Virus record (IMG/VR): IMGVR_UViG_3300035396_000446
Location: 1 to 35,005 of that record
Length of the DNA stretch: 35,005 nucleotides
Strand: one strand, 5' to 3'
Origin: a virus
Taxonomy: Duplodnaviria; Heunggongvirae; Uroviricota; Caudoviricetes
This document shows, one piece after another, positions 8,827 through 30,802 of this stretch (position 1 is the first letter of the stretch; each line of letters opens with the position of its first letter). A model generated the notes under the pieces. That model was not told the origin of the DNA. It worked only from the letters and a program-made list of their open reading frames with translations, and did not search any database. The position numbers were made by a program, and so were the translations under genes.

Positions 8827-8845
8827 ACTGAAATTTTTTACTCTT

Positions 8846-10517: not shown

Positions 10518-10610
10518 GAGGTATAAAGTATCTCTATGATTTTACAAATTACTTTATCTGCGAGAAAAAATAATGGGAAAAGAACTACTATAATCTTTAT
10601 GGATTTTAAC

Positions 10611-10639: not shown

Positions 10640-10680
10640 TACTAAGATATATATTAAAAAGAAAAGAAATAAAGTTTCCA

Positions 10681-12160: not shown

Positions 12161-12172
12161 GATCTACTCCTT

Positions 12173-13008: not shown

Positions 13009-13238
13009 ACGTGTTCCTGTATTTCTACATTTGGTAATCTATCAAAACTTAATACTTCAAACATTTCCTTCATTTTATAACTACAATGAATTGTTAATAC
13101 TTTATCTGTCCCATCGAGTGATTTTAATGATAATAATATCTTAGATATCTGACTACTACTTAGATATCCTTCTATTATTATGTCATGGTCTTTTGTTTTA
13201 TCTAGAAAATTAGGAAAACTATACATATTATATTTCAT
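13005..13238 (-). CDS. STAS-like anti-sigma-factor-antagonist protein (77 aa; start revised to ATG 13238)
   Basis: YLSSSQISKILLSL...G....L.I....KMKEMFEVLSFDRL parallels STAS (Y.DSSG.G.L...G...L......VF...G.DRL), and the phosphorylatable-Ser position is retained. The ATG lies 1 nt after the upstream stop. Confidence 0.6.
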   Translation of the reverse strand: MKYNMYSFPNFLDKTKDHDIIIEGYLSSSQISKILLSLKSLDGTDKVLTIHCSYKMKEMFEVLSFDRLPNVEIQEHV

Positions 13239-13239
13239 C

Positions 13240-13551
13240 TCATTCCCAAAGGTCGGTATCTGTTCCAAAAATAAGCGGAACTGCATCTAACCATTCTTCT
13301 TCTAATAATATCTTCCCATAAATTGCCATTTGGGATATTGGTTGACCGTCTACAATTGGATATTTTTCACCACATAATTGAACTGTTTTTACTGCGAGTG
13401 GGACTGCCCCATCTTTTCTTGCTTGTAAAGATGAATAACCATCTAAATCCACATAAAATATTTTATTTATAGTATCTAGTTCTATTCGTCTTAATCTCCA
13501 GTATGTTGCGTCTACTCCGAAAGGTGTTGAAATTGATTTTGTTAATGCCAT
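13240..13551 (-). CDS. Small fibre-associated protein (chaperone-like, commonly found after phage fibre genes)
   Basis: MAL.K.I.TPFGV.ATYWR......D.....GY.S..AR..G..PL pattern. Directly follows the 1077-aa fibre gene. Confidence 0.7.
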   Translation of the reverse strand: MALTKSISTPFGVDATYWRLRRIELDTINKIFYVDLDGYSSLQARKDGAVPLAVKTVQLCGEKYPIVDGQPISQMAIYGKILLEEEWLDAVPLIFGTDTDLWE

Positions 13552-13562
13552 TTTATTTTCTC

Positions 13563-16500
13563 CTATGTTAATGTTATTGTTACGTTTCCACCAGAATAAG
13601 AATATGAACTAAATGTTCTTCCTGTTCCATCTAATACTGGTGCCGACAGTGTCCCCGATTGACTACCTGTATATTGAAAAATTGTATATGTCCCTGCATC
13701 TAATGAAGCGGCTTGAAATGTTACAGCATTAGAATTAAATGTAAGATTTCCAGATACAGAAATTCTAGAAACAGTTGTGGTGCTTCCTATATTTACTTTA
13801 ATTAAAGAACCAGATGATAATGTTAAAGCACCTGTTCCAAAAGTTCCTGCATTTGATTCTCCAGTTCCACCGAATATAGTTGCTCCAGATGCTACTGTAA
13901 ATGCACTACTACTACAAGTCCCTGTACCACCCACCAAACCAACAGATATTTTAGTTGTTTGAGAGTATGTATTTGTTCCATTTAATAATAAAGTTCCAGC
14001 GCCTTCTTTTGCCACATACCCTGCACCAGATATTACTCCATTTACTGTCAATTGTCCTGAAGTTCCTATTTCAAATGCCATCGGATATGTGGCATTGGTT
14101 CTATTGGCAACCGAAATTGCACCATCAATCGTGTTAGTTATTCCATCTGGCACTTGAATATATGGTTTTGCTGTAGAAGGTGCCACACCGAATGCAATAG
14201 TTCTACTAAAAATTGTTGAGTTAGTATCGAATCTTATATATACATTAGTAGTATTATTACTTCCATCTCCAGTAAAAATAACTCCCGACCCTGTATTTGT
14301 GCCTACAACCGAAGCACCTGATGCTGGTACAGTATTACTTATAATAAATGTCCCAGTTACAAGAAGAATACCTTTAGTGAAATCATTAGATGTATTTGTG
14401 AACTTACAGGTACCAGATACCCCTTGCCCAGAAGTACCAACGCCCAATTGAGTATCATTCACTCCGTCATACGAAGAAGAAGTATCTGAAATTTTTCCCG
14501 AAATTGTAAGATTACTTGATGTGTAATAAATTTCTACCCTTCTGCCAACTTTTTCCCAGGATGTGGTTGTCACTCCAACATTAATATCACCATTTGTATT
14601 CAACCATCTTGCAATGTTTTTGTTTGAACCTACGTTTTCCGCAACTACTATCATTCCATAATGTGCAGTATTATTGCCAGTATACCATGATGGTCTTGTC
14701 CAAGCAGAACTGTTTACAACCCATACACCTCTTTGAGATAAAGTTGTTTGACTTGTCACTAATATTAAATCACCAGTTACTAAGGATACTCCATTTATTG
14801 TTTGTTCCCCAGATAATGTAACATTAACATTGGTTATTGTTTTGACGAATCTTACGCATGGTTGATTTAGAAATTTATCTGGTGTAGAACCATATAAAAT
14901 ATCACCAGTCCAATCAATGGTTGCACCATTGTATGCACCAAAAGCATCTCTATAATTTCCACTTATTCCATAACTTCTTGTAAAATCAACATTTTTTGCT
15001 ACTGTGGTTCCTGCTCCAATTTGAAGACATGAACCATTGAATCCACCAGATGCTGGACCACCTATGTATATTGTTCCAGATTGAGTTAAATCCCCAAATG
15101 AAGTTGCGTTAGAACCTCTTACAAACCCAGACTCAACTATAACATTCCCCGTCCATCCATCATTTGCAGACGTTACAATTGCAGCTCCAGAATATGGAAC
15201 AGTTCCTCTAGAAAGAAAATTGCCAGAACCTTTTAATGCACCATTATAATTAATGCTTCCAAAAAATCCAACAGAAACCAAATCATTTAATAATGTTAAT
15301 GATTGTGCAATATCATATGCATTATTTGTTCTACAATAATGTATAGTAGAAAATTTGTTTGTTTGTTCTTTTATGTTTATGTTAAAACTTCCAGCTAAAT
15401 TCATAGCAGCAAAATTTACAACATTCATATTTCCAATAGTTATATCATTTTCCAAAGTTATAGTTCTTTCTGATGTTAAACCATTTCCGAATTGAGCATA
15501 ACTTCCTGCCCAATTTACTGGAAGTTTATTTAGATTCTGGTCATCAGCATCATAATGATGTACTTCAACATTCATCAAATCAAAACTTGCATTAGTTCTA
15601 TTTATTTTAATTCCAAATCCAGTAATTGCTTCATCTATTATTCCAGATAATCCAGTTTGAGATGCAGTCCAATTATCATACCCACTTTGTCTATATCCAT
15701 AACTAACAGTATAATTATCAGTTCCAACTTTATGAATTTCAAAAGCATAAAATGTTTGTGTTTGTCCAGAGCCTTGAAAATCAACTTGATTTGTTAGACG
15801 AGTTCCAGTTGTTATCATATCTCTACTTGCAGAGTTTGATTGAAAAGAATTTGCGTACCTAATCGAAGCAGTTTTCCCTGTTAAAGTATTACTTACTGGT
15901 GATGTTATAGTAAAAGTATTTGTGGCAACATTAGATATCAGATAACTTGCATTTATAGGAAGACTTGTAGTATTACCACTTACGGTAACATATACATATT
16001 CATTATTAGAAAAACCATGATTATTAAATGTTATTGTAATTGTAGTTCCAGATTGAGTCCATGTTGCATTTACTTGACTTATCCAACCATGATTCATATA
16101 ACCAACACATTTATCAGCACTAACGAATCCAAAACAAATTGAGTTACCAACAGCGAATGCAGTAAGCGCAGCCCAATTAAATTCTACTCTTATTTTATCA
16201 CCATCATTGAGTGTGACTGAATTTGGAAATGTAGCTACCAAAGTATTTGCTGCGTTTACATCTAATACTTCCAAGATACCTGGGCCGCCATCCATTGATT
16301 TATAAGCAACTAGCCCACCACTATTTGAAAATGAGCTCCAACTCCAAGTCGCTGGTATATGACAACCATTATTTGTTACAGGAGATGAAATTGTTCTTGT
16401 AGAGATTGTATCTCCTGACATAGTAAAATCTAAAAGCTGGTCATTCATAACAGGTTTCCACTTCTCCCAACTTTTAGTAGAAATGGTATGTGTTCCTGTG

Positions 16501-16796
16501 CCACTTCCAGCAAATGTTATAGCAGTTCCTGCTTTTGTTGTAGAAATTCTTATAGTAGTTCCAGACACATATTGAATGAAATAAATTGTATTTGCTGTAA
16601 TTTCAGTGGGTAAAGTATCTGATGTAGTAAAATAAACTTTTTGATTTATTGCTATTAAAGATGGTTTTGTACTCCAAACAATATTAGAAGAACCACCACC
16701 AGTAAATGTTACAGTTCCAGATTGGTTATTCCAATATCCATTGCAATCTGAATCATGCATCCATATAGATTTATCAGACCCTACAAAACTACTCAT
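13563..16796 (-). CDS. Fibre/adhesin with autotransporter-passenger (PATR) beta-helix repeats and an inserted phage fibre domain
   Basis: PATR repeat (ISGAGYVAKEGAGTLLLNGTNTYSQTTKISVGLV); phage domain (TLSGEQTINGVSLVTGDLILVTSQTTLSQRGVWVVNSSAWTR); beta-sandwich modules (TITFNNHGFS...NTFTI). Confidence 0.8.
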   Translation of the reverse strand: MSSFVGSDKSIWMHDSDCNGYWNNQSGTVTFTGGGSSNIVWSTKPSLIAINQKVYFTTSDTLPTEITANTIYFIQYVSGTTIRISTTKAGTAITFAGSGTGTHTISTKSWEKWKPVMNDQLLDFTMSGDTISTRTISSPVTNNGCHIPATWSWSSFSNSGGLVAYKSMDGGPGILEVLDVNAANTLVATFPNSVTLNDGDKIRVEFNWAALTAFAVGNSICFGFVSADKCVGYMNHGWISQVNATWTQSGTTITITFNNHGFSNNEYVYVTVSGNTTSLPINASYLISNVATNTFTITSPVSNTLTGKTASIRYANSFQSNSASRDMITTGTRLTNQVDFQGSGQTQTFYAFEIHKVGTDNYTVSYGYRQSGYDNWTASQTGLSGIIDEAITGFGIKINRTNASFDLMNVEVHHYDADDQNLNKLPVNWAGSYAQFGNGLTSERTITLENDITIGNMNVVNFAAMNLAGSFNINIKEQTNKFSTIHYCRTNNAYDIAQSLTLLNDLVSVGFFGSINYNGALKGSGNFLSRGTVPYSGAAIVTSANDGWTGNVIVESGFVRGSNATSFGDLTQSGTIYIGGPASGGFNGSCLQIGAGTTVAKNVDFTRSYGISGNYRDAFGAYNGATIDWTGDILYGSTPDKFLNQPCVRFVKTITNVNVTLSGEQTINGVSLVTGDLILVTSQTTLSQRGVWVVNSSAWTRPSWYTGNNTAHYGMIVVAENVGSNKNIARWLNTNGDINVGVTTTSWEKVGRRVEIYYTSSNLTISGKISDTSSSYDGVNDTQLGVGTSGQGVSGTCKFTNTSNDFTKGILLVTGTFIISNTVPASGASVVGTNTGSGVIFTGDGSNNTTNVYIRFDTNSTIFSRTIAFGVAPSTAKPYIQVPDGITNTIDGAISVANRTNATYPMAFEIGTSGQLTVNGVISGAGYVAKEGAGTLLLNGTNTYSQTTKISVGLVGGTGTCSSSAFTVASGATIFGGTGESNAGTFGTGALTLSSGSLIKVNIGSTTTVSRISVSGNLTFNSNAVTFQAASLDAGTYTIFQYTGSQSGTLSAPVLDGTGRTFSSYSYSGGNVTITLT

Positions 16797-19700
16797 ACTG
16801 TTCTATTTATCCTTAATGATATTGCTAAATCAGTAGCACCACTTACTGAGGTTAAAACAACATCTATTGTTTGATTTGCTGTAAAAGTATTTGCTGCTGT
16901 GGCTTGTGTATTACTTATAACAGAAGTTACTGCTATTGCGCCTAAACTTGTTATAGAGGTTGTATCTATTCTAAAATTAGCGGTACAAGTTCCAGCAGAT
17001 GTTTTACAATCTGCATAAGTAATAGTACCTGCATAATTAGTTCTTAATCTAATAACATACGATTTATTTGTAGGAGATTCAATAAAGAAATCTAATTGGT
17101 CTGCAACATTTCCATCAGATGATAATAAAAATGTTGCGTCCACACCTTTATCAGGAATAGTATAAGTTCTACTAGCAGCAGGTGCGGTTGAAGAAATAGT
17201 AACTGTATTGGTTGTTCCTAATGTTAATTGATTTGTAGTTTTAGAAATTGTTAGTTGTGTGTTATCTAAGTATACTTGTTCTTTTGAATAAATGCCATAT
17301 TTTAAAACTGCTGGATTTATAGTTGAGATTAATCCTATATATGCACCATATATAGTTCCTGTAGACCCTTCTTGACTAACTGCATTATCTGCTATTCTAA
17401 ATCCATAAAAATCTCTATAACCAGAGAAGTGATCTACATCAAATGCAACTCCATAAGGAGTAGTAGCGTCGGTTCCGACTCCAGCAGCTACAGCAATTGC
17501 CCCACCAGTATCACCATTAGTTTTATACGCCTCTGAATAGATACCCCATGCACTTCCCTCTGATGATGCGTTTTCAACATTAGAAAAGATACTAATTCCT
17601 ACTGCATCCCCAGTACCTGCTCCAGTAACAAAAGCATTTATGTCTAATGCTTTTCTTGCAGTACCATCAGTGGAATCTACATCAATAGTAGTTTCAGAAT
17701 TTATTTGAAAAGTATCTGCCCCAGCATCATATAATAATGCTTGACCGCTACTATTTTTATTAATAGTAAAATCAGAATCAGTTGCTGTACTATTTATTAT
17801 AAGACCTCTTGATATAGTAACTGAATCGGCTATTAAAGCAATTAATGTTGTTGCAAATGTAGCAACATCAGTCAAACCGTTCTCTAATGTAAAAGTTCCT
17901 GATGACCAACTTATTGCCTGAGCTGCTTGTCTATATGTAGTTGTTCCTAAAGTTATATCATCATTTGCTATTATTGTCCCTCTTGTCGCATCTGATGTCG
18001 ATTGTAAAGTTAAATTTTCAGATGCAGCAGTTCCACCAATAATAGTTTGTCCACCAGCAACACCATCTTTATTTACTGCTTGGTCATCTATTTTATCGAA
18101 TGCTAATTGAGCATTTGTTTCAGTTGCAGTTAGAACTCTATTAAAATTAGAAATGTCAAGAGATACATCTGTTCCTGAAACTGCTGTCGTACCAGTGCCT
18201 ATAACAGTCCCAGTAACGGTTGCTACTCTTAGGTTAATAAAAGATGCATCAGATATTCTTGGATTCTGATTGTTAGTATTTAAAAAAGTTATTCTATAAA
18301 ATGGAACAACTTCTTGAAATGGTAGAGCAGTGAGTCCACTTAGATTTTGGAATTGAAAAGGTGTTTGTGTTAATGCAGTACTTAAAGTAGCAGTTGTACT
18401 TTGACCTTGACCACATATTGCAATAACAGGTTCAGATGTATTATTTGTTGCGAGTAAATACATAGGAATATATCTATTAGATGTTCCATTAGTAAAAGTA
18501 CCATTAGTTGCATTATTATATTGTGCTACCCCAGTTGCTATGTTTGTAGTAGTTGCTGCAAGATTTGATTTGACTACTGTAAAATCACCAGTTGCTAATT
18601 TTCTCCAAAGATTTGTTCCAGCATTAAAATAATAAATTGGCATTCTACCACCAACTACTATCGCATCTCCTGTTGTTAAACCAGTGACTGATGTAACTGT
18701 AAATGTAGTTCCCGTTCCACCAGTAGTTATAGTAGTAGTTCCTCTAACAGTTGTAGTATTTCCAGCCATCACAGTTATTGCTTGACCAGTTGCTAAAGTT
18801 CTTGAAGTAGGAAATACTATTGTAGTGGCATTTGTTCCTGTATCTGCTAATGCAGTAAACCCTAAGAATTGTTCTACTGTTAAACCCCAATTTGTAGAAG
18901 GTGTATCGACGGTAGAAGAATAAGAAGCATCCGAGTGAACAATAGTATTTAAAATATCTTCGTCAAAGAATGACCCACCAGATATTTGAATCATTGTTCT
19001 ACCAAAATTATTATTTGTATTTCCTGATAGATTTGTTAAACCATTATATTGACTAAATGTTAGTCCATTTTTATATAAAGCACCCTGTGAGTGATTCCTT
19101 GCATGTTGAAAAATATCTCTACCTGCTGTATGTCTTTCTTCTCCAACCCACATAAAAGTATTGCCAGTTGCTTCAAAATAAGCATTCCATAATAAAACAT
19201 CTGGGTCATAAATACTCCAAGGAGTTTTGGTTAAAGATATTACTGGTGATGCGACATCTGTTGTAGATTGGTTTACGTATAAAAACCAAGTTCCTTCAGA
19301 TGCTACTGCTGTTTGAGTATATGCAGATAGTTCAGTGGCAGTTACTGTAAACTTTTTGTCATTTAGATAATAACTAAAAGAAGTATTAGCACCTACAAAT
19401 GAAATTGTAGCAATAATATTTCCTGCATCATAAGTAAATGCTACTTTAAATTTACTTCTTTCACTCCATGGAATACCAGTGTTTATATGAGTATCCAATC
19501 CTACTTCTGCTGAATTTCTGTTTAAATCTGATATAAAAACATCTGTAAAAGTTGGATTATCAGTTGAATTTATTGCTTGGTCTGAATGATAATAATTATT
19601 GGTTGTTGGATTTCCACCTTGAATATTATTTGTATCATTATGCGAAATAATACTTGCACCACAATATTTAACATCAAAGGCACTATCAGTAATACCGGCG

Positions 19701-21313
19701 GATGCACCATTCTGAATGATTGAACGTCCTACTAAAACACAATGTTGTTTTATTACTAAAGGTAAATCTGATCTTTCAGATTCTAGTTCTGCATCACCAT
19801 ATCTTTTATGATTGCCTGTTCCTAAGACATAGAAGGTTTCTTTAACATTACCAATAGAACGATAATGCCATCTTATGCCATAATATGCGGCAGTTAATGT
19901 TGTAGGCCCTGTTAAAGGGTTATACTGAGTGTTATCATAAGTGGAAGCAGATGTTGTAAAAGACCATGTCCCATTTGTTACACTTGCCATTGTATATAAA
20001 TCTGTTGCAGATGTATATGCTTGAACCCATTGGATAAAAGTTCCAGCATAAACATAAGATTCTGTTATACTAATTACTCTTGAAGATTCTGAAATAATTA
20101 AACCAGTGCTTCCTGCTCTGCTATATGGTTGAGTTGCTTGTAAACATGCTGCTATTTTTTCAGGTAGAGCAACACCAGGAGCATCCCCAGATAAACTATG
20201 AATAGTATTTCCTGTTCTCCAGCATTTATAGATTGGAACTTTTGTAGCATAATCAAATGAATTAGCATTTGATGCTAAAGCAACTATTGGAGTTCCACCA
20301 TTATAATCAACATAAAGATATTGAGAAATACCATCAGTAAAACTATGAGGACCAGATGCTGCAATAGTATATTTTTCTATTGTTGTTAAACCATTTGTAT
20401 TTGATTTTAATAATACATCAAATCCACCTAGATCAGCAGTGCCATCATTATTATCTGTGAATGTAGGTTCAGTTCCATATACACCAACTGTGGTATATTT
20501 TCTAAGTGTATCAAGAACATCAGTATCTACTATTTTTTTCCAAACTGCTGCAATTTCTGTTGAATCAGTACATATAAAAACAGAATCAGTAGCAGTGTTT
20601 ATCCATACGTCGGAAACTCTATAAACAGTTCCGTTTGTCCCTTCACCATCATCCGCAATAGATGGGTCTGAGGTACGTTGATATTGATTTGCTTTTAGCG
20701 ATAGCCCTGTATTAACAGCGGCAGAAGTGGGTACGGTAGAATCATCTACTCCTAAAGTTGTTACGATAGTCTTAGCTGAGTCTTTTATGACTTTACCTGT
20801 CGTAGAGTCGAATAAAGCAATCCCATTGTCAACAGAACTAGCAGGGCCTGTTACTGCACCACTAATATTCTTTTGAATTACATTCCAATATATTCCAACG
20901 GTCGCTTGATTTCCACTAGCAGTAGAATCAGTATTACATAAAATTAAATCCCCAACCTCTACTTCTACACCAGATGCTCCACCTATTTTACCAGCAACTG
21001 ATACAATATATAACCAACCAGCATCAGCAGCTGGATAATTAGGATTAGTAGAGCAATCTATAACACCTTTATATACAAGAGCATTTGCTTCTCCAAGTAT
21101 ATTATTTATTTGTGTTTGGATAGAACTTGTTACACCTTTTAAATAACTTAACTCTGTTAGTGAGGGGTAAGTAGCAACTGGTAAAGAAACAACATTATTA
21201 TTCGAGTCTAAGGATAGTATTTCAGAGTGTGTTATATCAGTAATAGCAACTCCATTACTAAAGGTAACTAAATCACCAAATGTTTGTTGTTCGTTCTGGT
21301 CCAAATAACTCAT
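16793..21313 (-). CDS. Giant modular virion fibre/decoration protein (1506 aa)
   Basis: Thr/Gly/Ser-rich, with phage fibre modules (YPSLTELSYLKGVTSSIQTQIN, VTGPASS.D..IALFD.TTGK.IK, HND..NIQGG...YYH). GAGGAG SD. Confidence 0.85.
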   Translation of the reverse strand: MSYLDQNEQQTFGDLVTFSNGVAITDITHSEILSLDSNNNVVSLPVATYPSLTELSYLKGVTSSIQTQINNILGEANALVYKGVIDCSTNPNYPAADAGWLYIVSVAGKIGGASGVEVEVGDLILCNTDSTASGNQATVGIYWNVIQKNISGAVTGPASSVDNGIALFDSTTGKVIKDSAKTIVTTLGVDDSTVPTSAAVNTGLSLKANQYQRTSDPSIADDGEGTNGTVYRVSDVWINTATDSVFICTDSTEIAAVWKKIVDTDVLDTLRKYTTVGVYGTEPTFTDNNDGTADLGGFDVLLKSNTNGLTTIEKYTIAASGPHSFTDGISQYLYVDYNGGTPIVALASNANSFDYATKVPIYKCWRTGNTIHSLSGDAPGVALPEKIAACLQATQPYSRAGSTGLIISESSRVISITESYVYAGTFIQWVQAYTSATDLYTMASVTNGTWSFTTSASTYDNTQYNPLTGPTTLTAAYYGIRWHYRSIGNVKETFYVLGTGNHKRYGDAELESERSDLPLVIKQHCVLVGRSIIQNGASAGITDSAFDVKYCGASIISHNDTNNIQGGNPTTNNYYHSDQAINSTDNPTFTDVFISDLNRNSAEVGLDTHINTGIPWSERSKFKVAFTYDAGNIIATISFVGANTSFSYYLNDKKFTVTATELSAYTQTAVASEGTWFLYVNQSTTDVASPVISLTKTPWSIYDPDVLLWNAYFEATGNTFMWVGEERHTAGRDIFQHARNHSQGALYKNGLTFSQYNGLTNLSGNTNNNFGRTMIQISGGSFFDEDILNTIVHSDASYSSTVDTPSTNWGLTVEQFLGFTALADTGTNATTIVFPTSRTLATGQAITVMAGNTTTVRGTTTITTGGTGTTFTVTSVTGLTTGDAIVVGGRMPIYYFNAGTNLWRKLATGDFTVVKSNLAATTTNIATGVAQYNNATNGTFTNGTSNRYIPMYLLATNNTSEPVIAICGQGQSTTATLSTALTQTPFQFQNLSGLTALPFQEVVPFYRITFLNTNNQNPRISDASFINLRVATVTGTVIGTGTTAVSGTDVSLDISNFNRVLTATETNAQLAFDKIDDQAVNKDGVAGGQTIIGGTAASENLTLQSTSDATRGTIIANDDITLGTTTYRQAAQAISWSSGTFTLENGLTDVATFATTLIALIADSVTISRGLIINSTATDSDFTINKNSSGQALLYDAGADTFQINSETTIDVDSTDGTARKALDINAFVTGAGTGDAVGISIFSNVENASSEGSAWGIYSEAYKTNGDTGGAIAVAAGVGTDATTPYGVAFDVDHFSGYRDFYGFRIADNAVSQEGSTGTIYGAYIGLISTINPAVLKYGIYSKEQVYLDNTQLTISKTTNQLTLGTTNTVTISSTAPAASRTYTIPDKGVDATFLLSSDGNVADQLDFFIESPTNKSYVIRLRTNYAGTITYADCKTSAGTCTANFRIDTTSITSLGAIAVTSVISNTQATAANTFTANQTIDVVLTSVSGATDLAISLRINRTV

Positions 21314-21344
21314 AATAACTCCTCACCATTATTTATATCATAAA

Positions 21345-22463
21345 TCATATTGATGTTCCTTTTAATTTAGCAATTTCAATTCCTGCCTGTAAAAAGGCCC
21401 CTACTGCATAATTTCCTTGTGATGAAGAATTCCATAATGTTGCTGGGTATGGGTCTTTACCAATATCTTGAGTCCAACCAACAATTCCGCTATCTCTTAA
21501 ACAGTATTTAATTAACCCATTCCATCCTTTAGTAATAAAGGGTAGATAAGTAGAATCTAAGAATCCATTTCTTACACCCCAAGCCATTCCCCATACAAAA
21601 AATGATGTACCAGAGGATTCTAATAAATCAGGGTCTTGTGGGTCTAGCAAGTTAGCAGACCATAAACCAGTATCATTTTGAATAGTTATTAATTTTGCTG
21701 CCATATTTTGAAACATCGTAATATACTCTGCTCTATTAGCATTATCTATTGGAAGTTCAGTTAATATTCTAACAAGCATTCCAAATACCCACCCATTCCC
21801 TCTTGACCAAAATACTTTTTGTCCATTAGCAGATATAACTTTAGGGTAAACATAAGCCGCATCTCTAAACCATAAATGTTCATCTGTGTCATATAATCCA
21901 GTAATTTCAAGTTCAGAAATAGGTTGTTCATATCCAGACCAACGAAAATAACTATACATTTTGTCAAGAAAATTGTTATCATCTTCTTCTACACCAACCT
22001 TAACAAATGTTGGCATTGCCATGTATAATGCATCACACCATGTCCAATAATTTACAGCAGGTAATGCGATTTGTGCAGTAAGATTTGCTAAAGTATTAGA
22101 ATACTTATTTACATCTATTCTGCCTTCATGTCTATAATAATCTATATAAGATTGTCCCGCAGTTTGGTCATCAGCATGGTATGCGTCTGTTCTCACTGGT
22201 TTTAACCAGGAATGTTTATTACCCCAACCTAAAATATAATTCCAAGTATTTGTATCATTAAGATATTCTGCAACTGCAACTGCCCCATGAAAGTAAACCG
22301 CACTATCCCATTTATTATCTTCATATAGTGGGTATGATGCTTTCCAATAAGAATTTGCTAACTGCACAGCACTTATTATCTCACTGTACGGTGGTAGTAT
22401 ACTAATTCCTTTTTCAGAAATCTGCTTGCTTAATCTATTGTACTTACTTATTTGTGTAGGCAT
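21345..22463 (-). CDS. Glycoside hydrolase, GH105/GH88 clan (unsaturated uronyl hydrolase, YteR-like); start revised to ATG 22463 (372 aa)
   Basis: WDSAVYFHG, ADDQ..GQ.Y, WCDALYMAMP (catalytic-Asp motif), LWFRD, FWSRGNGW and ESSGTSFF..GMAWG..NG motifs. The ATG lies 1 nt after the upstream stop. No signal peptide evident. Confidence 0.9.
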   Translation of the reverse strand: MPTQISKYNRLSKQISEKGISILPPYSEIISAVQLANSYWKASYPLYEDNKWDSAVYFHGAVAVAEYLNDTNTWNYILGWGNKHSWLKPVRTDAYHADDQTAGQSYIDYYRHEGRIDVNKYSNTLANLTAQIALPAVNYWTWCDALYMAMPTFVKVGVEEDDNNFLDKMYSYFRWSGYEQPISELEITGLYDTDEHLWFRDAAYVYPKVISANGQKVFWSRGNGWVFGMLVRILTELPIDNANRAEYITMFQNMAAKLITIQNDTGLWSANLLDPQDPDLLESSGTSFFVWGMAWGVRNGFLDSTYLPFITKGWNGLIKYCLRDSGIVGWTQDIGKDPYPATLWNSSSQGNYAVGAFLQAGIEIAKLKGTSI

Positions 22464-22464
22464 T

Positions 22465-25400
22465 TTATTTAATCCAATAGTTAGTACTATCACATACAAA
22501 AGTAAGTGAATTATTTTGAGATATTATTACTTTCCCAACTGTTCCTAATGTTCCATCTATATTACCTGAAGAACTTTTAATTGTAACAGTATTTGTTGAA
22601 CTATCTGTTTTTTTAACAGTAAATGTATATCCATTATATTTAGATTCTGGTTCTAATAGATTCACTACAATATTTCCAGAAGTTGCATCTGCTAAAATAA
22701 AATCATCAGTTTCAGTAGCATTATCAGTCGCAGTAATTGCTCTGATTGTGGTATCGTTATTTCTAGTTACTGCTTCACTAGGTCTCCATGGGAGTATAAG
22801 TAATGTGTTAGCATCTATAACATAACATATAGGAGCTTGATATTGTCCTTCTGCTGATGGGATTGTTTCTGTTATTACACCAGCAGTAGTAGGAGACACA
22901 TAATAATAGTCTCCAATTGTTAATCCATGTCCTGTTATAAGTGCATGTCCTACCGACATAAACTTAAAGTTATCACCATCGACAACTTTGGTAACAATGC
23001 CAATACCTAATGTATTAGGACTATTGGCTTGTGCTTTTGTCCAAGTACCAGCATTATTATATATTGCATCAAGTACGACAAAACCATGAGTAGCTTGGGT
23101 TACAGATACTTGTAAGTAAGATTCATTTATTGCTCCAGTGCTTGTTATCGCACCAGTGCTTGCTATATCACCTCTAACATCTAACGTAGATAATGCTGTT
23201 TGACTAGTAAATGATTGAAAGTTTTCCCCAAGACCAACAATTACTTTTTGGTCAGATGTTACTCGTAAGCCTTCATACGTATTTCCACCACTACTAACTT
23301 GTGTTGTTGCTTTTTGAGTACATAATACTAATGCTCCTGGCATATCTTCTGCCGTAACAACACCGTCGACACCACAAAATATATCTGCTCCAGTTCTCCA
23401 TCCAGTACCAGCAGAGGCAGTCTCAGTTATACCAGCGGAAACTTTTCCAATAAATCTGAAAGCCCCGACAATATCATTTGCATTAACAGTAGTTGGAGCA
23501 GCAATAGTCCCTCTGGCTTTATACATTTTATTATAAGCGCTAAATTTACTTGTTCCAGATGCTCTAAGTATTGACATTGAGGCATCAAGACCAGTACCTG
23601 TTATAATAACCCTATCGGATAAACCTAAGTCTGTATCTCCGATTATAATTTGCTGCCCAAAAAAAGCATGTCCAGCTACTCCAAGTCCACCATCAGTTTG
23701 GATACTTCCAGTTGTGGTTGATGTTGAATCTGTTGTACTGTCTACAACTATATCATTATTAAATGTTTTTATTCCAGCTATTGTCTGAGCACCCGTTGTT
23801 AATACACCTCTAACAGTTGCACTTGCATCAGGCACGTGAACTGTTATAGAGTTTGCGGCATGTACTATGCCAAGGTCATTTGACTGAGCAGTTGTACCAA
23901 GACTTAATGTTTTATATTCATTAGCTGTAGCACCACTATTCATACCAAGAAGTTGATTAGCCGTACCTAATGCTAATTGTTTTATTATTTTACCAGTAGT
24001 AGAATCGAATAGAGCAATTGCATTATCAGTTGAAGAAGCTGGTCCTGTGACTTCTCCATCGATATTAGTTTGAACAACCGTCCAGTCAGCATCAAGATTT
24101 CCACTACCTGCCCTATCTACTATAGCAATAATTAAATCACCAACTTGACAAACAACCCCAGCATATGTACCAGCAGTAATTATTTTATAAGTCCATCCAG
24201 CACTATACGTAGTAGGTAATACAGTAATAGTACCACCAGTACCTAGTGTACCTTTAAATACCATTGCATCGCTTATTCCTAATAAATCATCTACATATTT
24301 TTTATTCGCTGCTTGATAATCAGTTGTCGGTGCAGATGAAGGAGTAAGTGGAAAACTACCGAATGTTTTTATACCATTGATTGTTTGAGCACTTTCAGTC
24401 ATTACAAATGTTGCATTTGTTCCAGCATCTGGGATAGTATAAGTTCTACTTGCAGCAGGGGCAGGACTTGTTAAAGTTGTTGTATTAGTTGCACCTAAAA
24501 CTATTTGACCACTTGTTTTTGAAATTATTAATGTTTTATCATTACTTATAGTTGTTTTGGAATTTAATGTTAATTCATCTAGACCTGCATCATAAACAAA
24601 AGCATTTGTTGTATCATCTTTCTTTATAGTAAAATCTTTATCTTCACTATTACTATTAAATACAACAGAGTCAACTACATTTACAGTTCCTCGTGTTGCA
24701 TTTGTTGTAGATTGAAGAGTTAAATTTTCAGAAGCATCTGCTCCACCGATTATTGTCTGTCCTAATGCTTTACCTGTAATTAAATCATTTTTAATATCAT
24801 TTACGGTTCTTGTTAGACCGTTAGAAAATGTTAATGGGACTTCTCTTCCTGATAATGCTGTAGTGACTGCAAGAGATGTTGGTACAGTAGCATCAGTAGA
24901 ACCTAACGTTGCTGTAATAGTCTTAGCAGATCCTTTTATAAATTTACCACTGGTACCATTAAATAAAACAATAACATTATCAGTTGAAGAAGCTGGCCCT
25001 GTTACGGCTCCATCGATATTACCTTGATAAACATCCCATTTAGTATAATCAGATGCTGAGGAAGGAATTGCATTACAAACAATAGCATCCCCTATTTCAA
25101 TTTTTATTGTATTGAATGTTCCTGCTGTCGATGACTTATATGTCTCTCCGACTACTGCTGGATAAGGCCATGTATTTTCAGCAATTGCGAATGCACCTTT
25201 ATAACTAAATAATCCAGCAACTTTTCCAGCCACATAAGTTACTACTGCTGCTTGTGAAGGAACCTTTGTATTTGAATTTGCAGTAAGTGCTCCGTCAGTA
25301 TCTAAATATGATAATGGTAATTGTTGAACATTATCAACACTACCCAAACTTACATCAGTCTTTGTTACAGTTAAAGCGTGAGTATGGGTACTAGTAGTAA

Positions 25401-28400
25401 CTAAATTTGTAGTAGCACCTGTTACTGTCGAAGGTGTTCCGACTGCTAATCCTGTTTGTCCACTTGTAAATCCAAGTCCACTATTTGTTGCAAGTGTAAC
25501 ATCACCACTATTTGTATTTGAAGTATTTCCAATTACAGTTGCTTGAGCATCTGTTACATAATTCTTATTTGTACTTGCTGCAATATCTGCTGTAGTAGCA
25601 TCAGCGCCTGAAGTAACTAGACCTTTAGCGTCATAAGTAATCTTTGTTTTAGTTGCTCCAGTTATAGCTACGTTAGGTACTACTGCGTCACCTTGAGTTA
25701 TAAATGTAGACGTATGTGCTTCATTACCGTGACTTGAAGGAGTTCTAGCGTTTGATAGTCTAGAATCATTACCTTGTACGACTACCCCTGCTGTAGACTC
25801 GCCGTCAGTGGCTAATTCAACAATACCTTTTACAGTTGTAGAAGCATCAGGCTCATCTCCTGTATTAGTTCCAGAGGTATTCCCTAATAGTGTTACTTGA
25901 GCATCTGTTACATAATTCTTATTTGTACTTGCTGCAATATCAGCAGTGGTAGCATCAGCTCCCGAAGTTACTAAACCCTTAGAATCATAAGTGATTTTAG
26001 TTTTAGTAGCACCTGTTATAGCCACATTAGGTACTACTGCATTTGCTTGGGTTATAAAGGTAGAACTATGAGCCTCGTTACCATGGCTTGATGGTGTTCT
26101 AGCATTTGAAAGTCTTGAGTCATTACCTTGAACTACAACGCCTGCTGTAGATTCACCATCTGTTGCTAATTCAACAATACCTTTTACAGTCGTAGACGCA
26201 TCAGGTTCATCCCCTGTATTAGTTCCACTTACAGCATTTAAAGATGTAATGTTTGAGTGTATATCAGTAGAATAAGTTCCTGATGGTTGTTTCCCCGCTA
26301 ATGCATCAAACACTGCATTTTGACTTGGAGCTATGTTAGTAACACCATCTGCAATTGAATCTGCAACTTTTCCATCTGCATAAGAATTAGAAGTTGTATT
26401 TGTAGCATTATCACCACTGTTTGTACCAGAAGTATTTCCAATAACAGTTAATTGAGTATCTGTTACATAATTCTTATTTGTACTTGCTGCAATATCTGCT
26501 GTAGTAGCATCTGTTCCACTTGTGACTAAACCTTTTGCATCATAAGTAATCTTTGTTTTAGTTGCCCCAGTAATAGCAACATTTTCATCTACTTTACCAT
26601 CTAATGCTGATTGTAAATCTGTTTGATTGGAAAGTGTTCCTGTTATATTTCCCCAAACTGCATCTTGCGAAGTAGATGCAATTGTAACCTCTGAACCAGA
26701 AGTTGTAAGAGATATATTAGACCCCTCTATTATCTTCAATGAACCACCAGTTGCTGAAAGTGTAACTGTATGTGAGGTTGCATCAGAAGAATGTGATAAA
26801 GATTGATTACCACTATTTGTCCCAGATGTATTCCCGATAACTATTGCCTGAGCATCAGTAACATAATTTTTATTTGTGCTTGATGCAATATCAGCAGTAG
26901 TAGCATCTGCACCTGCTGTCACTAAACCTTTGGCGTCATAAGTGATTTTAGTTTTAGTTGCTCCTGTTATTGCAACATTCGATGTGACCTTAGTGCCTAG
27001 TCCGGTATTTACTGCTGCGGAGGTAGGAACTGTAGAATCATCTGCCCCCAAAGTTGTTACAATAGTTTTAGCAGAATCTTTTATTACCTTACCAGTTGTA
27101 CTATTAAATAAAGCAATCGCACTATCAGTAGAACTTGCAGGCCCTGTTACTGCACCATCGATATTGGTCTGTGCTACAGTCCAATCCGCATCGAGATTAC
27201 CACTACCCGCCCTATCGACGATAGCGATAACTAAATCCCCAATTTGACATACTGTACCAGCATAGGTACCAGCGGTAATGACTCTATAAGTCCAACCTAC
27301 GCTATATGTGGTTGGTAACGCAGTAATTGTACCACCAGTACCTAATGTACCTTTGAACACCATAGCATCTACTGAGCTTAGTAAGGCATCAACATATTCT
27401 TTTACTAATCTATTAGTAGGGTACTTTGATGTAGAAGTATCTAAAGTTGTATTTTCTTTATTTGCAACATTTTCAGGAGTAAATCCAAGTGCGTCCTGTT
27501 TCGCTGCTAACGCATCAAATACCGCATTTTGAGAAGGCGCAACTGTAGTAATTCCATTCACTATTGCGTCCGTCACTTTACCATCCGCATAAGAATTAGA
27601 GGTTGTATTTGTAGCATTGTCCCCTGTATTTGTTCCACTAACTAAATCTAGTGATGCTCTATTAGAATGAGTAATAGCGGTTCTTTCTGCATCAGAAACA
27701 TATCTTTTATTTAAAGAATCAGTTATATCAGCAGTAGTAGCATCAGCTCCCGAAGTCACTAAACCCTTAGAGTCGTAAGTGACCTTAGTTTTAGTAGCAC
27801 CTGTTATAGCGGTGTTTGGAACTACTGCATTTGCTTGTACTATAAAAGTAGAGGTATGAGCTTCATTACCATGGCTTGAAGGTGTGAATGTAGATGGTTT
27901 ATTTAATATCTGAGCATCACCACTTACAGCATTCCAGTCTGAATTTACATTTTTTTCAGCCCCTACTTCTATTCCATCTAATTTTGTTATCTGAGTAGAA
28001 GTTGCATAACCATCCGCACTAGCAGTTGCTGCACCTAATTTAGTTTTAATGGTTGATTGTGTTTCATCCCCAGTATTTGTATTGCTTACTAAATCTAATG
28101 CTGCTCTATTAGAGTGAGTAATTGCTGTTCTTTCTGCATCACTAACAAATCGTTTATTTAAAGAATCTGAAATATTTGTAGTTGTAGTAGTATCTACGTT
28201 TGCAACATTTGATAAACCTACTTGTGTCTTAGTAACACTATGAGGGTTACTTGTAGAACTAATATGAGTTTGAATATTAGGATTCCCAGGTTCCTTTGAA
28301 TCCCACCCCGCTTTTTCTGTTGTATTAGTAAATTTATTTGTAGTAGCAGCATCAGAAATATCATCTGCATCTAAAACAACTACACCTACTTCACCATTAA

Positions 28401-28626
28401 CAGATTCAACCGGGTTAGATGCTTGCGGCCCCAATAAATCAACATATTCGTAATCTGTTTCATAGTCTAATTTTATACCTAGTTCAGTTCCTCTCCAATC
28501 ATACTCTAGGCCAAACCCACGTGGACCCATGTCATCTATAATATCTAACTCTTCGGGAGCTTCCTCGGTAATATCAATATAAATCGAATCCGAGCTAATT
28601 ACTTCTACGTCAATTGTTTCGCTCAT
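22465..28626 (-). CDS. Giant repetitive virion fibre/whisker protein (2053 aa)
   Basis: Fibre motifs (VESVNGEVGVVVL, DASTTVKGIVELAT, DASATVRGVLTTGAQTIAG.KTF), many internal repeats, and typical C-terminal phage beta-sandwich modules. Confidence 0.88.
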   Translation of the reverse strand: MSETIDVEVISSDSIYIDITEEAPEELDIIDDMGPRGFGLEYDWRGTELGIKLDYETDYEYVDLLGPQASNPVESVNGEVGVVVLDADDISDAATTNKFTNTTEKAGWDSKEPGNPNIQTHISSTSNPHSVTKTQVGLSNVANVDTTTTTNISDSLNKRFVSDAERTAITHSNRAALDLVSNTNTGDETQSTIKTKLGAATASADGYATSTQITKLDGIEVGAEKNVNSDWNAVSGDAQILNKPSTFTPSSHGNEAHTSTFIVQANAVVPNTAITGATKTKVTYDSKGLVTSGADATTADITDSLNKRYVSDAERTAITHSNRASLDLVSGTNTGDNATNTTSNSYADGKVTDAIVNGITTVAPSQNAVFDALAAKQDALGFTPENVANKENTTLDTSTSKYPTNRLVKEYVDALLSSVDAMVFKGTLGTGGTITALPTTYSVGWTYRVITAGTYAGTVCQIGDLVIAIVDRAGSGNLDADWTVAQTNIDGAVTGPASSTDSAIALFNSTTGKVIKDSAKTIVTTLGADDSTVPTSAAVNTGLGTKVTSNVAITGATKTKITYDAKGLVTAGADATTADIASSTNKNYVTDAQAIVIGNTSGTNSGNQSLSHSSDATSHTVTLSATGGSLKIIEGSNISLTTSGSEVTIASTSQDAVWGNITGTLSNQTDLQSALDGKVDENVAITGATKTKITYDAKGLVTSGTDATTADIAASTNKNYVTDTQLTVIGNTSGTNSGDNATNTTSNSYADGKVADSIADGVTNIAPSQNAVFDALAGKQPSGTYSTDIHSNITSLNAVSGTNTGDEPDASTTVKGIVELATDGESTAGVVVQGNDSRLSNARTPSSHGNEAHSSTFITQANAVVPNVAITGATKTKITYDSKGLVTSGADATTADIAASTNKNYVTDAQVTLLGNTSGTNTGDEPDASTTVKGIVELATDGESTAGVVVQGNDSRLSNARTPSSHGNEAHTSTFITQGDAVVPNVAITGATKTKITYDAKGLVTSGADATTADIAASTNKNYVTDAQATVIGNTSNTNSGDVTLATNSGLGFTSGQTGLAVGTPSTVTGATTNLVTTSTHTHALTVTKTDVSLGSVDNVQQLPLSYLDTDGALTANSNTKVPSQAAVVTYVAGKVAGLFSYKGAFAIAENTWPYPAVVGETYKSSTAGTFNTIKIEIGDAIVCNAIPSSASDYTKWDVYQGNIDGAVTGPASSTDNVIVLFNGTSGKFIKGSAKTITATLGSTDATVPTSLAVTTALSGREVPLTFSNGLTRTVNDIKNDLITGKALGQTIIGGADASENLTLQSTTNATRGTVNVVDSVVFNSNSEDKDFTIKKDDTTNAFVYDAGLDELTLNSKTTISNDKTLIISKTSGQIVLGATNTTTLTSPAPAASRTYTIPDAGTNATFVMTESAQTINGIKTFGSFPLTPSSAPTTDYQAANKKYVDDLLGISDAMVFKGTLGTGGTITVLPTTYSAGWTYKIITAGTYAGVVCQVGDLIIAIVDRAGSGNLDADWTVVQTNIDGEVTGPASSTDNAIALFDSTTGKIIKQLALGTANQLLGMNSGATANEYKTLSLGTTAQSNDLGIVHAANSITVHVPDASATVRGVLTTGAQTIAGIKTFNNDIVVDSTTDSTSTTTGSIQTDGGLGVAGHAFFGQQIIIGDTDLGLSDRVIITGTGLDASMSILRASGTSKFSAYNKMYKARGTIAAPTTVNANDIVGAFRFIGKVSAGITETASAGTGWRTGADIFCGVDGVVTAEDMPGALVLCTQKATTQVSSGGNTYEGLRVTSDQKVIVGLGENFQSFTSQTALSTLDVRGDIASTGAITSTGAINESYLQVSVTQATHGFVVLDAIYNNAGTWTKAQANSPNTLGIGIVTKVVDGDNFKFMSVGHALITGHGLTIGDYYYVSPTTAGVITETIPSAEGQYQAPICYVIDANTLLILPWRPSEAVTRNNDTTIRAITATDNATETDDFILADATSGNIVVNLLEPESKYNGYTFTVKKTDSSTNTVTIKSSSGNIDGTLGTVGKVIISQNNSLTFVCDSTNYWIK
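25500..27850 (-). repeat. Five copies of N.AITGATKTK.TYD.KGLVT.G.DATTADI, including a 354-nt (118-aa) near-tandem duplication
   Basis: Copies at about 25583, 25937, 26490, 26888 and 27725. The offset between the DEPDASTT copies is 354 nt, and many differences are synonymous. Confidence 0.9.
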
Positions 28627-28636: not shown

Positions 28637-29044
28637 TTATGTTAATGATGTTGTTTGTTCAGGACTTAAAACAAAGTCCCCATTTAAGATTCTTATAACA
28701 TCTTCCTCATCTACTAGACTAAATAGCTCTATATCATAATAAAGTGTGGTTTTCTCTGCGTAGTTTTTTCCCTTTGTAGGTATAGCAGAAGTTTTAGAGG
28801 GGAGAATATCAACGTAAATTATCCCAAGATTTTCTATAATAGATTGACCAGGGATTAGACAATCAAAACTCATTAAGGCTGTTTCATCATTAGCCTTAGT
28901 CTTAACCTGCCCTCTACACCCATATCCAGTTAAATCTTTTGGATCACCTTTAACGCCTGGAGTCGTGGACGGATTTCTTCTTGTAAGTTTTAATGTTTTT
29001 CTAGAACCTTTATCTACTAATAATTTATATACACCGGCTGCCAT
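28637..29044 (-). CDS. Fibre collar/adapter-like beta-sandwich protein (T5 LtfC/p132-like)
   Basis: MAAG.Y...VD.G....L......P.DLTGY..R.QV......G.I......T.......YD+EL.....V.R+L.G.F...PE pattern. Located at the head of the fibre operon. Confidence 0.65.
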   Translation of the reverse strand: MAAGVYKLLVDKGSRKTLKLTRRNPSTTPGVKGDPKDLTGYGCRGQVKTKANDETALMSFDCLIPGQSIIENLGIIYVDILPSKTSAIPTKGKNYAEKTTLYYDIELFSLVDEEDVIRILNGDFVLSPEQTTSLT

Positions 29045-29164: not shown

Positions 29165-29178
29165 ATTATCTTTAATTT
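29165..29178 (-). promoter_or_regulatory. Putative late promoter motif AAATTAAAGATAAT
   Basis: Intergenic, downstream of the MCP terminator and upstream of the fibre operon. Confidence 0.65.
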
Positions 29179-29248: not shown

Positions 29249-29280
29249 AAAAAAAAAGGCAACCCATATAGATTGCCTTT
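29249..29280 (-). terminator. Intrinsic terminator after the major capsid gene
   Basis: Minus-strand RNA AAAGGCAAUCU-AUAU-GGGUUGCCUUU followed by a U-run. Confidence 0.85.
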
Positions 29281-29323: not shown

Positions 29324-30802
29324 TTATACTAAGTTACGAACGTTAAGAGATGCGTAGTTGAACTGTCCACCGTCAACCATGATTTTTCCATAACGAGTCA
29401 TAAGTGCCTTTCTGGGCGTAAAGTCCTCCGGATCGATAACGGTCGGAGACATTTGAACAGGCACATACGGAGCATAGAAATACCCGGATTGCATGAAGTT
29501 GTCACCTTTGTAACCGATAAGAGCTTTAGAGGTTGGGAAAAGAGCATCTTTATAGATGTCCATTTTCTTACCAAGTTTCCCGCAATAAACAATACCAAAG
29601 TTTCCAGTGTTATTGCTAATTCCAGATGGAGCAGCTTCAAACCCTTCAAGAGTTTCAAGTTTTGCAGAAATCTCAGGAGAAGTTACGACCCAGTTACCTA
29701 CACCAAGTTTAGTGTATTTGTAGATCTTGTTCGCAAGTTGAACAATTCGATCTGCCATACCTTTAGCAGGGTTTGTGTAATTGAAGTCACGAGATACAGA
29801 AGAGTAATCATAAACTTCTTTAGTAGCTGCGCTTAACAAAAGGTCACGTAGAATCTCTCGGTCAATTTCAAGAGCAACTTCGTTAGAGAGAAGAGAAACA
29901 AGTTCTTTCTCAGCATCGATGTTGTGAATGATTCGCATGTCTTGTTCTGCTTCGTTTGACCATTTAGTTTTAAGTTTTCTTGTCTTAGCAGCAATAGGCT
30001 GAGAAAGAATTCTAAGGTCAACTTCAGGGAGGTCAGCTCGCGCTTCAAAATCACCTGCGGCATAAACAGTAATCTCGTCATTGAGTACAGTTCCACTAGG
30101 AATTGCAGTAGCAAAAGCAAGTGTTACTACACCGCTAGTTTTATCAATAGTGATAGTGTTTACGTCAACTTTATAGTCAACTTCACCTGTTCCAGTAGAA
30201 CCAGGATCAGATACGGACATAAGGTAAGCACCCCAACCATTAGTAGTAACAGAGTTACCGCTTCCGAGTTGGTCAAGGAAAGTTTTGTTCTTTGCAAGGT
30301 CATCAGTAGAAAGTAATGCAGTTGCAGACAATCTATTACCAGCGATAGAAAGAGTTCTAAGGTCCAATTCAAGCTCTTCAGAAGAGTAGTATGGGTCATA
30401 TACGAAGTTTTCGTATGCTTGTGGGTTAATCCCTAAGAATTCGTTACCAGCGCTAGTTCTACCTTTGTTAGTTGAGTAGAAATATCGTAGATAGAAAACA
30501 AGAGAAGAAGGTGTAGTCATAGGCTGAACACCTACGAGCTTATTAGCAACAAGAGCAGGATAAAAACGTCGTACAATCGGAAGAAGTACTCGTTCGGGTC
30601 CGGCGATATCGCCTGTTACAGTTGCTTCAGAAAGAATGCCGTTAGAAACACGGTCTTTCGAGCATTGATCAAGTTGGTTTTCAAGAAGAATAGCACATAC
30701 GCTTCTTTCATACCCTTTTAGGTTACCAAGTAATGGTGCCCATTTTTTTTCGTACATTTCAGCAAGCTGACCAAACTCAGCTACTTTTTGTGATGCGTCC
30801 AT
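29324..30802 (-). CDS. Major capsid protein, T4 gp23-like
   Basis: LVGVQPMTTPSSLVFYLRY, AKTRKLKTKWS.EAEQD, EIDREIL, GYFYAPYVP and DPEDFTPRKALMTRYG motifs. GGAGG SD. Confidence 0.97.
   Translation of the reverse strand: MDASQKVAEFGQLAEMYEKKWAPLLGNLKGYERSVCAILLENQLDQCSKDRVSNGILSEATVTGDIAGPERVLLPIVRRFYPALVANKLVGVQPMTTPSSLVFYLRYFYSTNKGRTSAGNEFLGINPQAYENFVYDPYYSSEELELDLRTLSIAGNRLSATALLSTDDLAKNKTFLDQLGSGNSVTTNGWGAYLMSVSDPGSTGTGEVDYKVDVNTITIDKTSGVVTLAFATAIPSGTVLNDEITVYAAGDFEARADLPEVDLRILSQPIAAKTRKLKTKWSNEAEQDMRIIHNIDAEKELVSLLSNEVALEIDREILRDLLLSAATKEVYDYSSVSRDFNYTNPAKGMADRIVQLANKIYKYTKLGVGNWVVTSPEISAKLETLEGFEAAPSGISNNTGNFGIVYCGKLGKKMDIYKDALFPTSKALIGYKGDNFMQSGYFYAPYVPVQMSPTVIDPEDFTPRKALMTRYGKIMVDGGQFNYASLNVRNLV

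Follow-up and report, generated by a model that had tools for sequence, protein, structure and literature searches.

What is an unsaturated-uronyl hydrolase doing between two giant fibre genes of a tailed phage? The gene in question, an open reading frame (ORF) of 372 amino acids (aa) plus stop at 21345-22463 on the minus strand, lies in a 35,005-nucleotide (nt) stretch of DNA that we call the window, which is the first 35 kb of the 99,005-bp IMG/VR virus record IMGVR_UViG_3300035396_000446 (CheckV completeness 47%). On the evidence of sequence comparison and a structural model, its product, here named P0001, is very probably a catalytically competent delta-4,5-unsaturated uronyl hydrolase of family GH105, in the beta-glucuronyl-type subgroup represented by the PDB entries 5NOA, 4Q88 and 4CE7. 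What is new is the finding of a known enzyme family in a conserved phage-structural context, the fibre cluster. We propose that P0001 may be carried by the virion on its fibre complex and act there after a beta-eliminating depolymerase, a reading to which, taken as a whole, we give an even chance.

Enzyme family and active site of P0001

P0001 matches the Pfam family PF07470 (Glyco_hydro_88, which covers both GH88 and GH105) with an E-value of 3.3e-62 and a score of 211 bits, against a cut-off of 26.6, over profile positions 21-351 of 352. Sequence searches of the PDB gave 5NOA (7.6e-55), 4Q88 (1.3e-50) and 4CE7 (6.4e-48), with YteR far weaker at 1.2e-13. All nine matches were GH105-type, YteR-like or unclassified glycosyl hydrolases, and none was a characterised GH88 unsaturated glucuronyl hydrolase (UGL). 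An AlphaFold2 model built on 31 homologues, with a mean predicted local distance difference test score (pLDDT) of 91.9, is an (alpha/alpha)6 barrel. It superimposes on the same three structures with template-modelling (TM) scores of 0.83-0.91 and a root-mean-square deviation (rmsd) of about 2 Å (TM 0.86/0.90 and rmsd 2.1 for 5NOA; TM 0.83/0.89 for 4CE7). In Foldseek searches with the model, GH105 members were recovered at 1e-24 to 1e-9 and GH88 UGLs at about 1e-7 to 1e-6; the YteR-type GH105 enzymes, like those of GH88, ranked far below 5NOA, 4Q88 and 4CE7. Judged by sequence and model together, P0001 is nearer to GH105 than to GH88, and the GH105 assignment made in an earlier, sequence-only reading of this DNA is upheld by both the Pfam score and the fold match. 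The family GH105 has been described as consisting exclusively of delta-4,5-unsaturated uronyl hydrolases (PMC8406133).

The conserved catalytic residues of YteR are Trp141, Asp143, Met147, Trp211 and Trp217 (PMC4528949). The residues that align with these in P0001 are W142, D144, M148, W219 and W225, and the W-x-D-x-x-x-M motif reads W142-C-D144-A-L-Y-M148. The sequence-only reading had described the catalytic motifs as intact, and the W-x-D-x-x-x-M motif is so, with D144 corresponding to YteR D143; the D143N crystal variant of YteR has its N opposite D144. Among the 31 homologues aligned, W142, D144, W219 and W225 are invariant and M148 is nearly so (at least 90%). The HADDQ sequence at residues 96-100 is common to P0001 and 4CE7, while 5NOA and P0005, one of the relatives described below, each differ from it at one Asp. 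The equivalents of YteR Asp88 and His189 map ambiguously in the subgroup of P0001: H196 aligns with YteR H189, is replaced by K, S or N in some other members of the viral clade, and is absent from 5NOA and 4CE7.

The same reading had reported no signal peptide, and this agrees with the low hydropathy of the N-terminus of P0001 when compared with bacterial homologues. No hydrophobic stretch occurs there: the Kyte-Doolittle mean over 12 residues peaks at 1.14 within the first 50, compared with 2.5-2.7 in the same measure for bacterial homologues that have signal peptides. The first 20 residues or so are modelled as a flexible tail.

Viral relatives, gene junctions and the late unit

A search of 5.8 billion protein clusters returned P0002-P0005 at 51-55% identity to P0001, the next matches being bacterial and no more than 39% identical; uncultured bacterial homologues reached 35-39% identity by BLASTP. 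Together with a copy on the viral contig L002 (48%), P0001-P0005 form a six-member clade on a long branch (0.74), with a value of 100 in the Shimodaira-Hasegawa-like approximate likelihood ratio test (SH-aLRT) and identities within the clade of 48-56%. The six members were seen only on viral or metagenomic contigs, and a scan of 185,579 species-representative genomes, made with only two short peptide patterns, recovered no member of the clade. The neighbours of the clade in the tree include enzymes with sorting domains of the type IX secretion system (T9SS), which are Bacteroidota-type secreted enzymes. A scan of viral contigs with the 31-sequence GH105 alignment gave zero matches and also missed L002, so it is uninformative on rarity.

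For three clade members, those of L002, P0002 and L007, the gene surroundings were legible, and in every case they were those of phage tail fibres. L002 is a 59-kb viral contig with a G+C content (GC) of 55% and an unrelated capsid type. It encodes a 921-aa protein in which two LamG-like modules make up the N-terminal part and GH105 the C-terminal domain. These modules match phrog_10356 (E 1.6e-37), for which "virion structural protein" is the database annotation, and the gene adjoins tail-fibre-like genes. P0002, encoded on a 197-kb contig, has the same kind of LamG-like module fused to GH105. On L007 (56% GC) the gene order is a tail fibre of more than 2006 aa, two LamG-like proteins, a stand-alone GH105 and a discoidin-type tail protein, and the GH105 gene has its own GAGGA ribosome-binding site (RBS), 14 nt after the LamG-like gene. 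The LamG-like proteins have homologues in isolated phages, namely in cyanophages and in phages of Xanthomonas and Erythrobacter, and the annotation of these homologues is virion structural or tail protein. As read from these sequences, the fusion and fission of GH105 and an upstream structural gene is a "Rosetta stone" signature of proteins that work together physically. The flexible N-terminal tail of P0001 stands where its relatives carry the linker to the fused domain.

In the window, the GH105 gene was said to lie inside a fibre operon and to have its ATG 1 nt beyond the stop codon of the gene for a 2053-aa fibre. Both points hold. The TAA stop of the fibre gene occupies 22465-22467, a single spacer nucleotide lies at 22464 and the GH105 ATG at 22461-22463; the gene sits behind the capsid gene, between those of two fibre proteins, P0121 (2053 aa) and P0122 (1506 aa).

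Is the gene native to this phage? Genes of the GH88/GH105 type are overwhelmingly bacterial, and the one "Bacteriophage sp." record with such a gene that was inspected (MT836317.1) proved to be a fragment of a Bacteroides-type polysaccharide-utilisation locus (PUL), as discussed below; both facts could point to an assembly chimera or to bacterial contamination. However, P0121 and P0122, which flank the gene with spacers of 1 nt and 31 nt, are module-sharing paralogues, both of them fibre genes of one phage, and an identical P0001 protein is also recorded on a contig of 190,870 bp. The composition of the gene is phage-like (GC 34.4%, GC at third codon positions, GC3, 19.8%, and a codon-usage correlation of r = 0.83 with the rest of the genome), whereas its nearest relatives come from contigs of about 55% GC. 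The match in GC, GC3 and codon usage makes a chimera or a recent transfer very unlikely, and, all points considered, we find it hardly credible that the locus is an assembly artefact or a contaminant. A chimera, which the sequence-only reading had named as one of the findings that would undo its claim, was not borne out.

The close junction also raises the possibility that ribosomes shift by +1 on the AAA-TAA-A at the end of the fibre gene and so make the fibre and GH105 as one chain. Read in the GH105 frame, which is +1 to that of the fibre, the 20 codons before the ATG (22464-22523, minus strand) contain no stop, and such a fusion would reproduce the architecture of the fused forms in L002 and P0002. 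However, the junction, ATT AAA TAA A ATG, lacks both a recognised +1 slippery site and a conserved stimulator, and an in-frame ATG 1 nt past a stop is what termination-reinitiation coupling ordinarily looks like. With L007 having a clean split form with its own RBS as well, we consider the frameshift product highly improbable.

The source virus is a large T4-like phage. Its record has 33% GC, carries nearly all genes on the minus strand and encodes a T4-like set comprising gp23 capsid, gp20 portal, prohead protease, gp15-like sheath stabiliser and head-tail adaptor. The left end of the record falls inside the gene that follows the gp15-like gene, so that the record lacks the tube and baseplate genes. 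The nearest cultured relatives of the gp23 capsid are Flavobacterium phages (32% identity), and these capsid relatives, with the T9SS-bearing sister enzymes of P0001, suggest a Bacteroidota-type host.

A strand-specific motif that may be a late promoter, judging by its distribution in the sequence, heads the fibre/GH105 unit (Table 1). The motif, AAWTAAAGATAAY, occurs exactly at 1568, 2350, 5282, 8813, 29165 and 32255; at up to one mismatch there are eight matches (six exact and two with one mismatch) against 1.6 expected, and all are on the minus strand. If the motif is a late promoter, then the 135-aa gene, P0121, GH105, P0122 and P0123 (1077 aa) are probably one late transcription unit, since a copy follows the capsid terminator, the next exact copy downstream of 29165 is the one at 8813, and the spacers are short.

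Table 1. Features of the fibre/GH105 unit and its upstream boundary, in window coordinates
Feature	Position	Strand	Remark
gp23-type major capsid gene	29324-30802		upstream of the fibre/GH105 unit
Terminator-like hairpin, 11 pairs + T-run	29255..29280	-	directly after the gp23-type capsid gene
Exact copy of strand-specific motif AATTAAAGATAAT, putative late promoter	29165..29177	-	heads the fibre/GH105 unit
135-aa protein, phrog_1084 (unknown function)	28637..29044	-	first gene of the unit
P0121, 2053-aa repetitive tail-fibre protein	22465..28626	-	weak tail-collar-fibre and BppL_N matches
P0001, 372-aa GH105 unsaturated uronyl hydrolase (very probable)	21345..22463	-	Pfam, model, catalytic D144
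Spacer of 31 nt, GH105 stop to ATG of the 1506-aa gene	21314..21344	-	no convincing terminator
P0122, 1506-aa fibre/receptor-binding protein	16793..21313	-
P0123, 1077-aa adhesin-like protein	13563..16796	-	start overlaps the P0122 stop (ATGA)

Elsewhere in the record, at 35-99 kb and outside the window, Pfam matches include a tubulin/FtsZ-family GTPase, a GGDEF domain and an anti-Pycsar Apyc1-like protein. An IS605 OrfB/Cas12f-like TnpB, an intein, a SET domain, a protein kinase and a GT9 heptosyltransferase were also matched there.

Proposed role and the search for a partner lyase

The scheme that we propose would begin with the acquisition of GH105 by the phage lineage from the secreted enzymes of Bacteroidota-type bacteria, the gene having since become fully adapted to the phage genome. 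GH105 would be made late, on the same transcript as the giant fibres, with its translation coupled to that of the 2053-aa fibre gene. P0001 would then be held non-covalently on the fibre complex and travel with the virion, docking possibly through its N-terminal tail of about 20 residues at the site where its relatives have their fused LamG-like domain. This association with the virion, which we infer from the fibre-cluster context and by analogy with the LamG fusions, we hold to be slightly more probable than its opposite.

On the host surface, P0001 would act after a beta-eliminating depolymerase. Beta-elimination leaves a 4,5-unsaturated uronate on the new non-reducing end and, since surface polysaccharides are anchored through their reducing end, the capped end is that of the stub still on the cell. 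GH105 would hydrate the vinyl ether and so remove the unsaturated cap from the cell-bound stub, which would make the following sugar accessible to another cut or to receptor binding and relieve product inhibition. We are a little more doubtful of this lyase-dependent role, which we put just short of an even chance. If the scheme is true, a fibre-linked exo-enzyme would add a second processing step to phage passage through uronic-acid capsules, and could explain how lyase-bearing phages escape dead-end capped receptor stubs.

Several observations weigh against this scheme. P0001 has no anchor domain of its own, and no LamG-like or phrog_10356 domain was found in the record to which the window belongs, so that its attachment to the virion is purely inferred. 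Many GH88 and GH105 enzymes, such as YteR and the Bacillus UGL, are cytoplasmic, and a protein without a signal peptide could also work inside the cell. Neither of the two closest capsid relatives (66-69% identity) has a GH88 or GH105 gene; both are short fragments, 11-12% complete. In one of them, L012 (IMGVR_UViG_3300049489_001249, 8005-18005; 66% capsid identity), which extends for 10 kb beyond the capsid gene, only small genes and no giant fibres lie downstream of it, so that the GH105 gene appears to belong to an accessory, variable fibre island and not to the core genome; the giant-fibre/GH105 island appears to be a lineage-specific insertion at the post-capsid position. Finally, the window, the 99-kb record and the L002 record were searched for a lyase or a beta-helix depolymerase, and neither was found.

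Some of these points could be explained if P0001 were a soluble protein working outside the virion, either released at lysis, where it would help progeny escape from lyase-processed exopolysaccharide, or acting in the cytoplasm as the product of an auxiliary metabolic gene (AMG) on imported unsaturated oligosaccharides. A stand-alone 372-aa protein with neither anchor domain nor signal peptide would be expected in either case, cytoplasmic members of these families exist, and no phage lyase was found. Against such a function, a fibre gene lies on either side of the gene within a late structural unit, its clade recurs in the fibre clusters of unrelated phages fused to virion-protein domains, and no uronate-catabolism gene is among the best 25 of the 43 Pfam families matched by the ORFs of the record. 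We judge a soluble function unlikely. Since the clade recurs in fibre clusters and is fused to LamG-like virion-protein domains, a virion-borne accessory enzyme is favoured over a metabolic gene. The AMG alternative offered by the sequence-only reading is accordingly the less likely one.

The position of the gene is also that of a fibre accessory or receptor-binding gene, and the flanking proteins have domains like those of receptor-binding proteins (RBPs). P0001 could thus be mainly a recognition module for terminal (unsaturated) uronate at the surface of the host, its catalytic activity having become secondary or been lost; its Bacteroidota-type relatives are secreted together with lyases, and host lyases could pre-process the glycans. 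However, most of the family-invariant active-site residues, including the catalytic Asp, are kept across the clade at only 48-56% identity, and this invariance suggests selection for catalysis. We find a mainly recognition-based role decidedly unlikely.

Returning to the proposed virion-borne enzyme, its partner was sought in several ways. Pfam identified no lyase in the 2053-, 1506-, 1077- and 135-aa proteins, PHROGs none across the large proteins, and PDB sequence searches none in the three giant proteins and an 826-aa protein; ESM Atlas searches returned unnamed viral clusters only. The 826-aa protein, helical and charged, was rejected as a depolymerase. Six-frame searches of the 99-kb record and of the 59-kb L002 record with PF12708, PF13229, PF02278, PF14099 and PF15892, covering beta-helix/pectate-lyase, PL8, jelly-roll "Polysacc_lyase" and BNR_4 families, found none of them. 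No polysaccharide lyase (PL) family was among the best 25 of the 43 Pfam families matched (89 ORFs), and a weak PL match could be hidden below these. The absence of a lyase is weak evidence, because the record lacks half of the genome, baseplate genes included, and because no fold could be recognised in the P0121 C-terminus or in much of P0122.

Bacterial homologues at 37% identity are single chains of 1283 aa that combine discoidin, PL8 lyase, GH105 and T9SS domains, and by analogy with these PL8-GH105 fusions, coupling to a lyase is natural for this GH105 subgroup. The fusions P0297, P0300 and P0301 contain Lyase_8_N, Lyase_8 and Lyase_8_C, P0297 alone representing 85 member sequences; all three look like secreted two-step degraders of uronate polysaccharides. 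Other bacterial homologues of the subgroup are fused to BNR_4 or LamG domains. We considered whether the LamG-like modules might themselves be jelly-roll lyases and rejected the idea: their profile found nothing in the PDB, and the LamG-GH105 combination is also common in bacteria, which makes a carbohydrate-binding or anchoring role of the modules the simpler explanation. The sequence-only reading had envisaged a virion-linked two-step depolymerase with an unrecognised lyase. Its virion-linked half gains indirectly from the LamG fusions and the fibre clusters, while its lyase half does not, none having been detected in a record 47% complete.

The giant proteins beside P0001 were examined for what they might contain. 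P0121 and P0122 are fibre-like and have N-terminal and C-terminal modules in common. One scan of viral contigs found no relatives for the C-terminal 490 aa or so of P0121, and the ESM Atlas returned nothing but unnamed viral clusters for them. For P0122, an AlphaFold model of residues 250-1125 (pLDDT 66.7) matched only a TssK/RBP-shoulder-like domain and a small beta-barrel, and in this one model no lyase fold was recognised in the central part. Residues 260-1115, approximately, of P0122 comprise two widespread modules, found in 2017 proteins at E<=0.001 and in 1370 at E<=1e-10. The proteins that contain these modules are large and fibre-like, with lengths up to 3000 aa; the modules belong to no Pfam family and in parts fold poorly, with no clear structural match. 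P0123 has a capsid-decoration-like Ig domain (PDB 9nx3, E 2.9e-5) followed by an autotransporter-type PATR beta-helix at its C-terminus. It looks adhesin-like, and the beta-helix is its sole resemblance to lyases; among named proteins, it is closest to the passenger domains of bacterial autotransporters.

The giant fibres might hide a lyase of an undescribed family, for which the central module of P0122 (about 1,370 homologues at E<=1e-10) or the unique C-terminal 490 aa or so of P0121 may be candidates. P0001 and the lyase would then make up a complete depolymerase of two enzymes borne on the virion, which would be the first of its kind among tailed phages. Alternatively, host lyases might cap the glycans beforehand, with no phage lyase involved. 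We regard either of these outcomes as unlikely.

Comparison with known systems

A tblastn search of 50,697 phage records gave ten weak matches, at no more than 34% identity, to unannotated virome scaffolds, "Listeria phage LM" contigs and a Salmonella enterica genome contig. The second-ranked match, L019 (MT836317.1, 15,122 bp), was rejected as a phage sequence, being the Bacteroides-type PUL fragment mentioned above. Its gene content comprises a TonB-dependent receptor, DUF2264, BNR_4, GH88/105, GH43 and GH97. With only this one of the ten matches inspected, no bona fide tailed-phage GH88 or GH105 was established from the phage records searched, and in full-text literature searches no paper describing GH105 or GH88 in the tails of such phages was found.

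Among bacterial enzymes, the closest comparison is with 5NOA and 4Q88 (both from Bacteroides) and 4CE7, which belong to the same subgroup as P0001, have 29-32% identity to it in structural alignments and contain the same W-x-D-x-x-x-M motif. The 4CE7 enzyme is an ulvan-degrading unsaturated 3S-rhamnoglycuronyl hydrolase, that is, an unsaturated beta-glucuronyl hydrolase of the ulvan pathway. P0001 differs from bacterial GH105 enzymes in having no signal peptide, in its location in a phage late fibre operon and in belonging to a separate, long-branch clade. The bacterial PL8-GH105-T9SS and LamG (PF13385)-GH105 fusions are extracellular and join GH105 to a lyase or to a LamG-type module. Both kinds of fusion are bacterial nutritional enzymes, whereas the phage gene has no fused lyase and its record no PL8. 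A small, soluble GH105 free of a signal peptide, such as P0001 would provide, could be of use in glycan analysis.

Phage tailspike lyases, such as the K5 lyase, the hyaluronate lyase HylP and the Klebsiella capsule lyases, are virion-borne, are encoded in fibre clusters and attack uronic-acid capsules, and their products are substrates of GH88 and GH105. P0001 resembles tail-fibre depolymerases in its placement in a fibre-cluster late unit, as do the enzymes of L002 and L007, and differs from them in having neither an N-terminal virion anchor nor a trimeric beta-helix/fibre architecture. The tailspike lyases are trimeric beta-helix endo-lyases with N-terminal anchors, while P0001 is an anchorless, exo-acting (alpha/alpha)6 barrel of the monomer type. 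The phage depolymerases known to us are all endo-acting lyases or hydrolases. GH105 in a fibre cluster could serve as a marker for unrecognised lyases of uncultured large phages, probably those of Bacteroidota-type hosts.

The most similar viral system is that of Aureococcus anophagefferens virus (AaV), a giant virus of a eukaryotic alga. Its putative unsaturated glucuronyl hydrolase, AaV_078, was the only significant match to the P0001 model in BFVD, a library of viral protein structures (E 3.4e-6), at about 12% identity in the structural alignment. Purified AaV particles hold a pectate lyase, the putative unsaturated glucuronyl hydrolase and several ConA-like proteins (PMC7507832), AaV_078 being packaged with the pectate lyase AaV_038. 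The packaging of the AaV proteins was shown by proteomics, whereas that of P0001 is a proposal. The AaV and phage GH105-type enzymes were apparently acquired independently, and, as an analogy, the set of ConA-like proteins and hydrolase in AaV is a striking parallel to the sets of LamG-like proteins and GH105 in the phages.

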